A DNA stretch of 64,000 nucleotides, from sequence record NC_005066.1; one strand, written 5' to 3'. Shown here in pieces: positions 29,278 through 33,847 of the stretch (within the stretch, counting starts at the first letter, position 1; each line of letters begins with the position of its first letter). The notes below the pieces were generated by a model. That model made no database searches, had not been told where the DNA came from, and worked only from the letters and a program-made list of their open reading frames with translations. Made by a program: the position numbers and the translations under genes. Source of the stretch: Escherichia phage RB49.

Positions 29278-30864
29278 ATGAAAACTACCAAAGAACTGAT
29301 GGAAAAATGGTCCCCGCTGCTGGAGAACGAAAAACTGCCGGAAATCGCAACTGCGTCTAAGCAGAAACTGGTTGCTAAAATTCTGGAATCTCAGGAAGCG
29401 GATTTTGCTGTAGACCCGATCTATAAGGATGAAAAAGTTGTTGAAGCATTCGGTGGCTTTATCGCAGAAGCCGAAGTTGCTGGCGACCACGGTTATGACG
29501 CATCTCAGATCGCGGCTGGTCAGACTACTGGTGCAATCACCAACGTAGGTCCGGCTGTTATCGGTATGGTTCGCCGTGCTATCCCTAACCTGATCGCATT
29601 TGATATTTGTGGCGTTCAGCCGATGAGCACCCCGACTAGCCAGATCTTTGCAATCCGTTCTGTATACGGTGGCGATCCGCTGAAATCCGGTGCTCGCGAA
29701 GCATTCCATCCGATGTATGCACCTGATGCGTTCCATAGCTCTCTTGCTGCTAAAGAGGCAACTGTAGGTTCACCAACTGGTACTGCATTCGCTAAACTAA
29801 CTCTTTCCCAGGCTATCACTGCTGGTGATATCGTATATCACACCTTCGCAGAAACTGGTATTGCTTATCTGCAAAACGTAACTGGTGATTCTGTAACACC
29901 ACAGAAAGTAGGTAGCGAATCCGAAGATGAAGTAGTAATGAAGCTGATTGAAGAAGGTAAATTGGCTGAAATCGCTTTCGGTATGGCTACTTCCATCGCC
30001 GAAATTCAGGAAGGCTTTAACGGTTCCAGCAATAACCCGTGGGCTGAAATGTCAATGCGTATTGACAAACAGGTTGTTGAAGCGAAATCTCGCCAACTGA
30101 AAGCCCGTTACTCTATCGAAGTTGCGCAGGATCTGCGTGCTGTACATGGTATGGATGCTGACGCTGAACTGAATGCTATCCTGGCTAACGAAGTTCTGCT
30201 GGAAATCAACCGTGAAATCGTTGACGTCATCAACTTTACCGCTCAGGTTGGTAAAACTGGTATGACTCAGACCGTTGGTTCTAAAGCTGGTGTATTTGAC
30301 CTGCAAGACCCGATCGATACTCGCGGTGCTCGTTGGGCTGGTGAATCCTTCAAATCTCTGATCTACCAGATCGACAAAGAAGCTGCTGAAATCGCTCGTC
30401 AGACTGGTCGCGGTGCTGGTAACTTTGTTATCGCTTCCCGTAACGTTGTAAACATTCTGGCTTCTGCTGATCAGGGTATCAGTCTTGCTATGCAGGGTGC
30501 TGCAAAAGGTCTGAATACCGACACCACTAAAGCTGTTTTCGCTGGTGTTCTGGCTGGTAAGTACAAAGTGTTCATCGACCAGTATGCTCGTCAAGACTAC
30601 TTCACCGTAGGTTACAAAGGCGACAACGAAATGGATGCTGGTATCTACTATGCTCCGTATGTTGCTCTGACTCCGCTGCGTGCAACTGATCCGCAGTCTT
30701 TCCACCCGGTTCTGGGCTTCAAGACTCGCTACGGCATCGGTATTAACCCGTTTGCAGACAGCAAATCCCAGGAACCGTCCGCTCGCATCACCTCTGGTAT
30801 GTTGAGCAAAGACAGCGTAGGCAAAAACGCATACTTCCGTCGTGTATGGGTTAAAGGCTGCTAA
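29278..30864 (+). CDS. 23: major capsid protein gp23
   Basis: 528 aa; T4 gp23-like throughout; codon usage typical of a highly expressed gene. Confidence 0.95.
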   Translation: MKTTKELMEKWSPLLENEKLPEIATASKQKLVAKILESQEADFAVDPIYKDEKVVEAFGGFIAEAEVAGDHGYDASQIAAGQTTGAITNVGPAVIGMVRRAIPNLIAFDICGVQPMSTPTSQIFAIRSVYGGDPLKSGAREAFHPMYAPDAFHSSLAAKEATVGSPTGTAFAKLTLSQAITAGDIVYHTFAETGIAYLQNVTGDSVTPQKVGSESEDEVVMKLIEEGKLAEIAFGMATSIAEIQEGFNGSSNNPWAEMSMRIDKQVVEAKSRQLKARYSIEVAQDLRAVHGMDADAELNAILANEVLLEINREIVDVINFTAQVGKTGMTQTVGSKAGVFDLQDPIDTRGARWAGESFKSLIYQIDKEAAEIARQTGRGAGNFVIASRNVVNILASADQGISLAMQGAAKGLNTDTTKAVFAGVLAGKYKVFIDQYARQDYFTVGYKGDNEMDAGIYYAPYVALTPLRATDPQSFHPVLGFKTRYGIGINPFADSKSQEPSARITSGMLSKDSVGKNAYFRRVWVKGC

Positions 30865-30950
30865 TATAAGCCAATTCCTGAAAAACTCCGGTCGGGTGCA
30901 ATACCCGACTTATCATAAACCTTATGACAGTGTAAAGTGTTAATTCCAAA

Positions 30951-30979
30951 GGGAAGACTCGAAAGGGTCTTCCCTTTTT
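30951..30979 (+). terminator. intrinsic terminator after gene 23
   Basis: hairpin GGGAAGAC-loop-GTCTTCCC followed by TTTTT. Confidence 0.7.
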
Positions 30980-30995
30980 GCGTATTATAACCCGT

Positions 30996-31003
30996 TATAA
31001 ATA
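30996..31003 (+). promoter_or_regulatory. T4-type late promoter TATAAATA reading into the 23-24 intergenic region
   Basis: exact TATAAATA 17 nt after the gene 23 terminator; no long ORF downstream for about 360 nt. Confidence 0.45.
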
Positions 31004-31367
31004 AGGTTGCAAGCCTATATTCTATTGGGAGCGAAAATCGATACACACAACAAAGACAGGAAGATGCGGAACATCGGTGGGTTGCTAGCCTAAATCCGGT
31101 GGATATGATATGTGATTTCTTTTGATGCTGGATTTATTAAAACACAACAAACAATTCCACCAATTTTCGTAGTAACTGCATGGCAAAGGACCAATGAATG
31201 AAATGAGCGTTCATGTTGATATTGGGTCGGATAGATTTGGTAGATATATATACAGATCTTGTGTATACAGACCTTGTTATGACATTTCAGCGTGACGCTA
31301 GCGGTAATTTTTGGTTTTGGTACGCTGTTCCCTGAATTAACCCAAAATTCTCCATAAGGAGGAATGC

Positions 31368-31520
31368 ATGAGTAAGAAAGAAAACAGCTATGTTATGACT
31401 CGTAAGGAATACAACGAATTGATGTTAGCATTAGCTTATGCAATTATTCGTTCTGATCATGCAATTAATCTGGTAAACAAAGTTAACCGTAGCGTTGATA
31501 ATGTTTCTAGGAAGAAGTAA
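31368..31520 (+). CDS. small hypothetical protein (50 aa)
   Basis: ATG preceded by AAGGAGG; followed by hairpin terminator. Confidence 0.35.
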   Translation: MSKKENSYVMTRKEYNELMLALAYAIIRSDHAINLVNKVNRSVDNVSRKK

Positions 31521-31530
31521 GTTTATTTTT

Positions 31531-31558
31531 GGAATCCTTCGGATTCCTTTTTCTTTTT
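31531..31558 (+). terminator. intrinsic terminator
   Basis: hairpin GGAATCC-TTC-GGATTCC followed by TTTTTCTTTTT. Confidence 0.6.
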
Positions 31559-31559
31559 G

Positions 31560-31567
31560 TATAAATA
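31560..31567 (+). promoter_or_regulatory. T4-type late promoter TATAAATA
   Basis: exact TATAAATA 37 nt upstream of gene 24 ATG. Confidence 0.6.
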
Positions 31568-31604
31568 TGATATATCCATTAAGGCAAATACAGGATTCAT
31601 AAAC

Positions 31605-32846
31605 ATGACTCATATTTTTACTGAACTGTTGCGGGAATCTACTTCCTCAGTAGCTAACCAGACAGCGCGACCGCAACTATTATCATTAACTCGCGCGGTA
31701 AACAACCTGATTTTCTCTGATCTGGTAGCAATCCAGCCAACGGATCAACCAGTATCTGCATTGTACGGCCTACGTTATCTTAATCGTGATGGTCAGATGA
31801 CTTTCCGAACTGCTGCGACCTACGGTGGCGCGGCTGGTGATCGCACAGAGATTGAAGAGTTTTCAAAAGAAAAATCTTATGACGAAGGCGCACTATTCAA
31901 ATCAGGCGATGTTGTATACGAAGTTGTGACCGCTGGTACAGTCGGTGAAGATGCCGAAACTCCAGAATCTGCAATCTTTAAAGGCGTAATGACAAACAAA
32001 ATTCGTTTCTATAGCGATTGTGCATCGGTAGAATACTTTGAAGATAAAAACACCGAAATTTCGTCTACCTCTATGCAGTTTGACAAGTGGCAAGTTAATG
32101 TAGGTTCTCGTAAACTGAAAACCTCGTTCACGACCGAATTGATGCAGGATCTTGAGGCAAGCCAAATCAACTCTGAAAACTCTGTAATTGATCTTCTGGC
32201 TACTGTTGCTTCCGAAGAGATCAACAAAGATATTATTCAGAAGTTGATCACTGTATCATCTCGCTATAAAATTAAAGGGATCACCCCTGATGGCGTACTT
32301 TCTCTCGTTAGCGTTCAGGATGCACCAACACAAGCGCGTGAACTTTACCGCTATGCTTGCGAAATGAGCAATCAAATGTTGCGGACTTCCTCCTTTGCTG
32401 GTACATACGTTTTGGCGTCTTCTCGCGTGGTTGGCCTCCTGCAATCTTCCGGTTGGATGGAAGAAACCGACAATGCTCTAAGCGAAGGTCGTCTACGTTG
32501 CGGTCTGGAAGTGTACGCAGACACGACAACACCTTTCGATTATATGCTCGTTGGTTGTAAGCACATGATCGGTGATATGGAGAGTGTAGGTTCTCTGTTC
32601 TACTCCCCATATACAGAAGCAGACGGCGCTGGCGCGTATAAGAGCGTAATTGACCCTAATAGCTTCCAGCATCATGTAGCTATTATGAATCGTTATTCAC
32701 TCTCTGTCAACCCATACACATCAAAAGTTGATCAGGAAGAACACCAGGTCATCAAGGGTGACGATTGGGGTAAAATGGCTGGACGTTCAGAAATGTCCTA
32801 CATTTTAGGAATCGAACTGCCACCGCTTGAGATTGACAACGCTTAA
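31605..32846 (+). CDS. 24: capsid vertex protein gp24
   Basis: start placed at MTHIFTELLRE (T4 gp24 starts ...ELLRESTT); gp23 paralog; ORF track extends 48 nt further upstream across the late promoter. Confidence 0.9.
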   Translation: MTHIFTELLRESTSSVANQTARPQLLSLTRAVNNLIFSDLVAIQPTDQPVSALYGLRYLNRDGQMTFRTAATYGGAAGDRTEIEEFSKEKSYDEGALFKSGDVVYEVVTAGTVGEDAETPESAIFKGVMTNKIRFYSDCASVEYFEDKNTEISSTSMQFDKWQVNVGSRKLKTSFTTELMQDLEASQINSENSVIDLLATVASEEINKDIIQKLITVSSRYKIKGITPDGVLSLVSVQDAPTQARELYRYACEMSNQMLRTSSFAGTYVLASSRVVGLLQSSGWMEETDNALSEGRLRCGLEVYADTTTPFDYMLVGCKHMIGDMESVGSLFYSPYTEADGAGAYKSVIDPNSFQHHVAIMNRYSLSVNPYTSKVDQEEHQVIKGDDWGKMAGRSEMSYILGIELPPLEIDNA

Positions 32847-33434: not shown

Positions 33435-33586
33435 AATATTTCCTCCATAGAAAGCAATATCATACTACAAGTTAATAACAAATACAAGTATCCGCGTAGC
33501 GGAAGCGAGCACAGCGAGCAATAAAACACTTCTAGTAATTGATTAATAAATGTTCGAAACAAATTTTTATTATTCTATAAGATAAG

Positions 33587-33612
33587 TCTTCGTTTTGATC
33601 ATAATTTAATCA
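33587..33612. repeat. 26 bp direct repeat, copy 1 (TCTTCGTTTTGATCATAATTTAATCA)
   Basis: identical to copy at 33736-33761. Confidence 0.8.
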
Positions 33613-33735
33613 TACATGTAAAAACTACACAAAAGGATATCGCTTCGCGAACTCCTACGGAGTATAACATTTGTGTTACAATATGTAGTGATTAATAATT
33701 AACCAAAGATACATTTTCTATGTTCTAAAGATCTT

Positions 33736-33761
33736 TCTTCGTTTTGATCATAATTTAATCA
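33736..33761. repeat. 26 bp direct repeat, copy 2
   Basis: identical to copy at 33587-33612; flanking ACATGTAAA also shared. Confidence 0.8.
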
Positions 33762-33814
33762 AACAGTATTAATATTGTGCACATGTAAACTAAAATTATG
33801 TTAATAACAGATAC

Positions 33815-33838
33815 AAAAAAGCCGTCCCGAAGGACGGC
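33815..33838 (-). terminator. intrinsic terminator (minus strand)
   Basis: hairpin GCCGTCC-TTCG-GGACGGC then TTTTTT on minus strand, just after stop at 33848. Confidence 0.6.
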
Positions 33839-33847
33839 TAATGTTAA

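Follow-up and report, generated by a model that had tools for sequence, protein, structure and literature searches.

In the plastic regions of T4-like phages, pseudogene remnants occur between core genes as truncated or frameshifted pieces of genes that are intact in relatives, and they show raised substitution and indel rates. The locus described here, the spacer between the major capsid gene (gp23) and the vertex gene (gp24) of an RB49-type phage, is like them on each of these points. It differs from the usual remnants of hyperplastic regions in that it lies inside the highly conserved head-gene cluster, and in that the same RB49-type scar is present in about 50 sequenced isolates, with part of it annotated as a protein family (phrog_20809).

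In T4, this site holds segD, a minus-strand gene for a GIY-YIG homing endonuclease that separates genes 23 and 24, as stated in the original prediction for the locus. The segD gene and the insert found here in other krischviruses have the same position, and both are optional inserts between the major capsid and vertex genes. They have, however, neither sequence nor domain similarity; segD is a minus-strand endonuclease gene, and the insert of krischviruses a late operon for fibre-like proteins on the plus strand.

Late units of T4 extend from a gp55-type promoter, for which the T4-type consensus is TATAAATA placed at -13 to -6 (PMC1524935), to an intrinsic terminator. The unit analysed here has the same motif, a spacing to the start codon close to that of its neighbours, and a terminator composed of a hairpin and a U-run; unlike T4-type late leaders, the first ~360 nt of its predicted transcript consist of noncoding debris and are unusually long.

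For the proteins encoded by the insert, the closest described structures are the C1q/TNF-like heads of BclA and PRD1 P5 and the fibre tips of R-type pyocins and AP22, which resemble the models of the insert proteins g2 and g3 in combining a stalk with a knob. Sequence identity of g2 and g3 to these knob fibres is only 4-19%, any trimerisation, virion attachment or receptor would be putative for them, and the g2 and g3 genes are located among head genes, unlike the fibres of a tail-fibre module.

Organization of the gp23-gp24 spacer

The window, i.e. the whole stretch of 64,000 nucleotides that was analysed, is Krischvirus (RB49-like) genome. Its gp23 gene (29278-30864, plus strand) and its gp24 gene (31605-32846, plus strand, with the ATG at 31605) are separated by a spacer of 740 bp (30865-31604). 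The spacer was compared against a collection of 50,697 phage records, and shares 94-98% identity with its counterpart in about 50 Krischvirus members (RB49, Phi1, JSE, GEC-3S, KFS-EC and others). Over both strands of the whole 64-kb window, 31047-31367 is the longest run without an ORF of at least 50 aa; with a threshold of at least 62 aa, the longest run in the window is 30865-31556. The second-largest ORF-poor gap of the window (33435-33847, 413 nt without an ORF of at least 62 aa) is found between two minus-strand genes 3' of gp24, and is kept as a gap in annotated relatives.

The original prediction had listed, from left to right, a gene 23 terminator, a perfect late promoter reading into an ORF-poor stretch of about 360 nt, a 50-aa ORF with a strong ribosome-binding site (RBS), a second terminator and the gene 24 late promoter, and all of these are in place. 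The first hairpin 3' of the gp23 stop codon (GGUCGGGUG/UACCCGACU, 30890-30910; -13.1 kcal/mol, z -3.5) is conserved in 13 relatives and has no U-run on the plus strand; read on the minus strand, it is followed by a T-run and called terminator-like by the scan. The intrinsic terminator of gp23 (30948-30982, plus strand) has a 13-bp stem, a GAAA loop and a run of five uridines. Its hairpin (within 30948-30977; -20.4 kcal/mol, z -5.5) was overlooked by a simple terminator scan; the records of GEC-3S and G2248 carry a terminator annotation for it.

The late promoter motif TATAAATA follows as an exact match to the T4-type sequence at 30996-31003 (plus strand), and occurs again as the gene 24 late promoter at 31560-31567 (plus strand), where it is invariant in the alignment of 13 relatives. 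In the window, ten copies of the motif were observed, with 5.9 expected by chance. The motif at 30996 is separated by 45 nt from the start position of g1, the first gene of the operon described below, compared with spacings of 40, 41 and 45 nt for gp22, gp23 and gp24; it aligns with the promoter of this operon in phage Brandy, and is identical in 12 of the 13 phages aligned, with CATAAATA in JSE. The unit is closed by an intrinsic terminator 3' of the 50-aa ORF (31531-31559, plus strand; -9.2 kcal/mol, z -3.8), formed by GGAAUCC-UUC-GGAUUCC (31531-31547) and a U-run and likewise among the annotated terminators of GEC-3S and G2248.

No terminator-like site was found in a scan of 31004-31530, and a scan of the spacer for the late motif with at most one mismatch returned nothing besides the TATAAATA copies and TATATATA at 31245-31252. 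From the promoter spacing, the lack of an intervening terminator and the lack of another late motif, we infer a late transcript of ~0.55 kb. The TATATATA sequence, one mismatch from the late-promoter consensus, lies inside the debris and was created by a (TA)2 expansion private to the window.

A sigma-70-type promoter candidate on the minus strand (TTGCAA-17-TATAAT, 10/12; 31012-30984) overlaps the late promoter and faces the complement of the two hairpins (30977-30948 and 30910-30890), the second of which has the minus-strand T-run; it could give a short early antisense RNA of ~95 nt, or be due to chance. Further downstream, the terminator and promoter stretch before gp24 (31525-31563) weakly resembles, by blastn, T4 sequence 21-60 nt past the gene 23 stop codon (T4 locus L025, 2032-2071; 80% over 41 nt, with an E of 1.4e-4 from a two-sequence search); the two phages could share a terminator here, or sequences of the hairpin/T-run kind could match by chance.

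The intact operon in related phages

In six Krischviruses (G2248, Brandy, UPWr_E1, SSG23, SFHK24 and JK32), out of 57 Krischvirus records in the collection, the match to the spacer is limited to its right-hand part. The gp23-gp24 gap of these six is ~3 kb longer and contains a cassette of plus-strand genes for proteins of 102 aa (g1, phrog_16217), ~570 aa (g2) and ~309 aa (g3), followed by the 50-aa gene; JK32 carries an additional gene for a protein of 614 aa (g4). The intact loci are those of G2248 (L005, 651-3786), Brandy (L004, 668-3825) and JK32 (L010, 2898-7948), together with L008, L009, L021-L024 and L027. In a tblastn search, the other parts of the 64-kb window gave no match to the cassette.

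For g2, the AlphaFold model is of moderate quality (pLDDT 62) and contains a TNF/C1q-like knob, and the sequence has five collagen-like G-X-Y triplets. In the model of g3, a beta-sandwich knob is combined with a long helix, which we interpret as a coiled-coil stalk. With a stalk and a C-terminal beta-sandwich knob in the models, g2 and g3 resemble phage fibres, and we infer their fibre function and association with the virion from the predicted fold alone. The coiled-coil protein g4 of JK32 shares its first ~55 residues with g3 (37% identity, E 9e-14), which suggests a common docking module.

When the cassette proteins were searched against Pfam, nothing reached the gathering score, except for coiled-coil families in the case of g4, and a PDB sequence search with a g2 profile yielded nothing significant, with a pyocin fibre as the best match (E 0.46). 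PADLOC, applied to the cassette proteins and the 50-aa protein, gave no sign of a defence system; its matches were coiled-coil artefacts (JK32 g4) and one marginal Cas6 (50-aa protein, E 0.0076). In the literature library that was searched, neither the cassette nor the scar is described, and the papers on Brandy49, SSG23, JK32 and G2248 contain no mention of the cassette genes and no proteomics or genetics on them.

Remnants of the operon in the window

By pairwise blastn, the spacer of the window is a patchwork of the cassette locus, matching three separate places in Brandy, and every base of 30865-31604 aligns with the fibre-cassette locus of relatives. The segment 30700-31049 matches that locus from the end of gp23, through its terminator and the late promoter, to the first bases of g1, and the segment 31193-31700 matches it from the end of g3 through the 50-aa gene into gp24. 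At 31026-31043 (plus strand), a relic RBS region (GGGAG) is followed by the dead start of g1, in which ATG is replaced by ATA (31041-31043; GGGGAGCGAAAATTAGATGCACACA in Brandy and GGGAGCGAAAATCGATACACACA in the window, as aligned). The ATA is found in all 13 remnant-type phages, i.e. the window and 12 relatives.

Two further fragments, both on the plus strand, fill the ORF-poor stretch. The first (31050-31211) is internal to g2, covering about residues 394-446 of ~570 and thus the start of the TNF/C1q-like knob. It is 87.7% identical to Brandy L004 2161-2321 by blastn and split over three frames (blastx of 31051-31210, frames 3, 2 and 1, E 5e-15), with a match by tblastn as well. The second (31193-31357) is the 3' end of g3, comprising its last ~50 codons (about residues 260-310 of 309); it matches Brandy L004 from 3501 on (88-94% blastn identity) and is split over two frames (blastx of 31198-31354, E 3e-12). 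As 31050-31357 is accounted for as gene fragments, the stretch is not the random spacer against which the original prediction had been framed.

The g2 and g3 pieces join in an imperfect direct repeat (31193-31211, plus strand), the copies of which in the intact locus, AATGAAGGAAATGAGCGTT and AATGAGATTAAATTAGCGTT, are imperfect 19-20-nt repeats ending in a shared AGCGTT; this points to an origin of the junction by deletion between short repeats. At the left deletion junction, no clear microhomology was seen. Within the g3 fragment, the window-private (TA)2 expansion (4 nt; 31244-31252, plus strand) breaks the 45-50-aa ORF of the g3 tail, which is why no long ORF had been seen here at first reading.

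Decay and constraint

For the analysis of diversity, the window was aligned with 12 remnant-type relatives. Nucleotide diversity is 0.033 in the g2 fragment, with eight indel events (1, 1, 1, 2, 5, 13, 20 and 99 nt), and 0.022 in the g3 fragment, with four (1, 1, 4 and 11 nt), compared with 0.0028 and no indel events in the 50-aa gene, and with 0.012-0.015 and no real indels in the adjacent coding sequence of gp23 and gp24. Nucleotide diversity is thus about tenfold higher in the debris than in the 50-aa gene, the majority of the 12 indel events in the debris are not multiples of three, and the starts, ends and frames of its short ORFs vary among close relatives. Similarity to intact genes, truncation, frameshift and start loss, and relaxed constraint are all found together in the ORF-poor stretch, which we regard, on these comparisons, as very probably a gene remnant, i.e. 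pseudogene debris.

The 50-aa gene (31368-31520, plus strand), the last gene of the former operon, is intact and belongs to phrog_16600, a family without assigned function. As predicted, it has a strong RBS, AAGGAGG (31356-31362), separated from the start codon by five bases. The protein has 100% amino-acid identity in 40 records, and dN/dS against G2248 is 0.14; an ungapped dN/dS against JK32 was set aside, since the two sequences are misaligned by a 1-codon indel. Homologues have 48-50 aa, with 15 invariant residues, and extend down to 47% identity, and an exhaustive HMMER search returned four cluster representatives in 1.84 billion proteins.

To judge from sequence comparison, the 50-aa gene is the sole part of the unit under detectable constraint; its retention could be due to recent common ancestry or to selection, with two substitutions within the close group. 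The nucleotide diversity of the gene is 4-5 times below that of the flanking capsid genes, and there are zero synonymous changes in close relatives; this could stem from a recent sweep, from recombination, or from constraint on the RNA itself. Its Shine-Dalgarno sequence is paired in a small hairpin (31348-31363, plus strand; 6 bp, -6.8 kcal/mol, z -2.9), the AUAA loop of which holds the stop codon of intact g3. Comparable small hairpins are present in G2248 and in metagenome relatives. The arrangement suggests that, where the operon is intact, translation of the 50-aa gene is coupled to that of g3.

A late noncoding RNA had been among the roles envisaged for the ~360-nt stretch, and it might equally be thought of as a structured leader for the 50-aa gene or gp24, given its location 3' of a perfect late promoter with no terminator between, and the hairpin at the Shine-Dalgarno sequence. 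The stretch is probably transcribed, as a leader only, but a function as RNA is very unlikely: its minimum free energy (-80.5 kcal/mol) is no better than the mean of shuffled sequences (-82.5 kcal/mol; z +0.40), with 64 of 100 shuffles folding at least as well, and a search of 30500-32000 against Rfam (E <=10) gave five matches of 17-20 bits, none of them credible against gathering scores of 43-114. Furthermore, relatives have tolerated deletions of 99, 20, 13 and 11 nt here, plus many indels of 1-5 nt, the gene fragments explain the whole of 31050-31357, and the Shine-Dalgarno hairpin is part of the g3 stop/RBS junction of the intact operon rather than of the debris.

Marginally less probable again is that the short plus-strand ORFs (28-40 aa) are micro-peptides made late in infection, as had also been put forward. 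Hypothetical proteins of 33-57 aa are annotated here in several records, and one of them has its own PHROGs family, phrog_20809, with a frame that is open in most relatives. This family, to which the recurrent "hypothetical protein" of 45-57 aa in Phi1, GEC-3S, JSE and others belongs, matches the C-terminus of g3 (last ~45 residues), however, and corresponds in the g3 model to the last two strands of the beta-sandwich and the disordered end. The g3-tail frame is open (45-65 aa, with a weak AAGGA upstream) in 10 of the 12 sampled relatives and broken in the window and in 011D4; among relatives, the ORF has four different N-termini, two C-termini owing to a 1-nt indel, and a third owing to loss of the stop codon.

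In the nine phages sharing the same frame, all nine variable sites of the g3-tail ORF are nonsynonymous (pN 0.028, versus 0.0014 in gp23, which has a pS of 0.048), which fits neutral drift, and the remaining short ORFs are without any conservation. The short ORFs are accordingly frameshifted fragments that vary among relatives, and phrog_20809, phi1p161.1 and similar entries would be due for re-annotation as a pseudogene tail, although a residual g3-tail peptide is still conceivable in relatives with the open frame.

Loss versus gain

The order gp23-102-564-309-49-gp24 recurs in metagenomic relatives with a 50-aa homologue at 57% identity, and the full cassette order is also found in the divergent JK32 and on one contig from IMG/VR. 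Another contig, whose homologue of the 50-aa protein has 50% identity, carries a truncated upstream ORF followed by a 49-aa gene and gp24. Full-length homologues of g2 extend down to 37% identity, some of them on ~170-kb contigs. The IMG/VR scan yielded two loci in all, one of the remnant type and one intact, which are too few for natural frequencies. Because the cassette order recurs in distant relatives, the intact operon would be ancestral and the RB49-type spacer derived, and because the pieces are internal and 3' fragments of long intact ORFs, the change would be a loss, not a gain. On this sequence evidence, the DNA that was lost amounts to ~2.7 kb and came from a late operon of fibre-like genes already present in the ancestor of the lineage.

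The opposite course, in which the short spacer came first and Brandy, G2248 and JK32 acquired the 3-kb cassette by later insertion, would agree with the small share of Krischvirus records that carry the cassette (six of 57), but is very improbable: out-of-frame internal and 3' pieces of ORFs that are long and intact elsewhere cannot come from an insertion, the g1 start is mutated in the window, and the full cassette is present in all of the most divergent relatives found.

An origin of the scar from a homing endonuclease gene has next to no probability, even with segD at this site in T4 and with intergenic sites between conserved late genes given as typical landing sites of such genes in PMC2988022, since the best tblastn match of SegD to the spacer has an E of 0.6 over 8 residues, Pfam (stop-free segments of at least 25 aa in six frames, E <=10) gave no endonuclease domain, and the cassette alignment takes up the entire spacer. 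Of the lost mobile element proposed in the original prediction, the scar of lost DNA is borne out by the cassette homology; the mobile element is not, as the SegD tblastn and six-frame Pfam searches for endonuclease remnants gave no sign of one at the spacer.

Proposed history and present unit

The 740-bp gap is in all likelihood what remains of a late operon that once separated the major capsid gene from the vertex gene. This operon would have comprised the late promoter, g1 (102 aa), g2 (~570 aa), g3 (~309 aa), the 50-aa gene and the terminator. One deletion would have removed ~1.5 kb from the g1 start to mid-g2, and another ~1.2 kb, consisting of the rest of g2 and most of g3, with the ends joined at the imperfect 19-20-nt direct repeat. 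What is left today would be the promoter, the ATA-mutated start of g1, ~160 nt of g2, ~165 nt of g3, the 50-aa gene and the terminator, with the g2 and g3 remnants frameshifted and presumably drifting neutrally.

The present unit most likely runs from the late promoter through a junk leader and the 50-aa gene to the terminator. The gp55-type promoter at 30996 would start the ~0.55-kb transcript, which would stop at the terminator at 31531-31559; the first ~360 nt would be functionless pseudogene debris with the role of a 5' leader alone, and the sole product would be the 50-aa protein. As judged by its alignment with the intact locus, this promoter once drove the lost g1-g2-g3-g50 operon and is now the sole recognisable promoter for the 50-aa gene; it would be kept because that gene has no other. 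The debris would persist because there is no strong selection for its removal, and is still shrinking in some lineages.

The largest noncoding gap in this part of the RB49-type genome would thereby be explained, and a tempting candidate for an ncRNA or micro-peptides removed. A supposedly streamlined T4-like phage would carry, in about 50 sequenced isolates, ~300 nt of junk under a putative live late promoter. The feature itself is an ordinary, though well-preserved, example of decaying genes; what merits further attention is the optional operon for fibre-like proteins that came to light alongside it.

The optional operon of putative fibre genes

An unstudied optional operon for fibre-like proteins between capsid genes, in a genus used in therapy cocktails, is a new lead that may bear on host range. 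That the scar marks the loss of previously undescribed accessory virion fibres coded in the head-gene cluster (g2, g3 and the 614-aa fibre of JK32) is a tentative proposal, which on the present models we hold to be possible but rather doubtful. If such fibres were located on the capsid or neck and aided adsorption, their presence or absence would constitute a host-range switch, which could be flipped by recombination between co-infecting phages via the flanks that are still in place. Such fibres might also be behind the passage of Brandy49 through O-antigen layers, since its infection of O-antigen-shielded strains is reported as unexplained (PMC9569957); to connect the cassette with O-antigen penetration is speculation. 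A link between isolation host and cassette state was considered and dropped, as remnant and intact types both come from wild and laboratory hosts.

In Brandy, g2 (L004, 984-2713) is present as two overlapping ORFs of 250 and 327 aa, and in G2248, SSG23, UPWr_E1 and JK32 as a single ORF of 570-576 aa; the split in Brandy is either a frameshift with which decay starts or a sequencing error.
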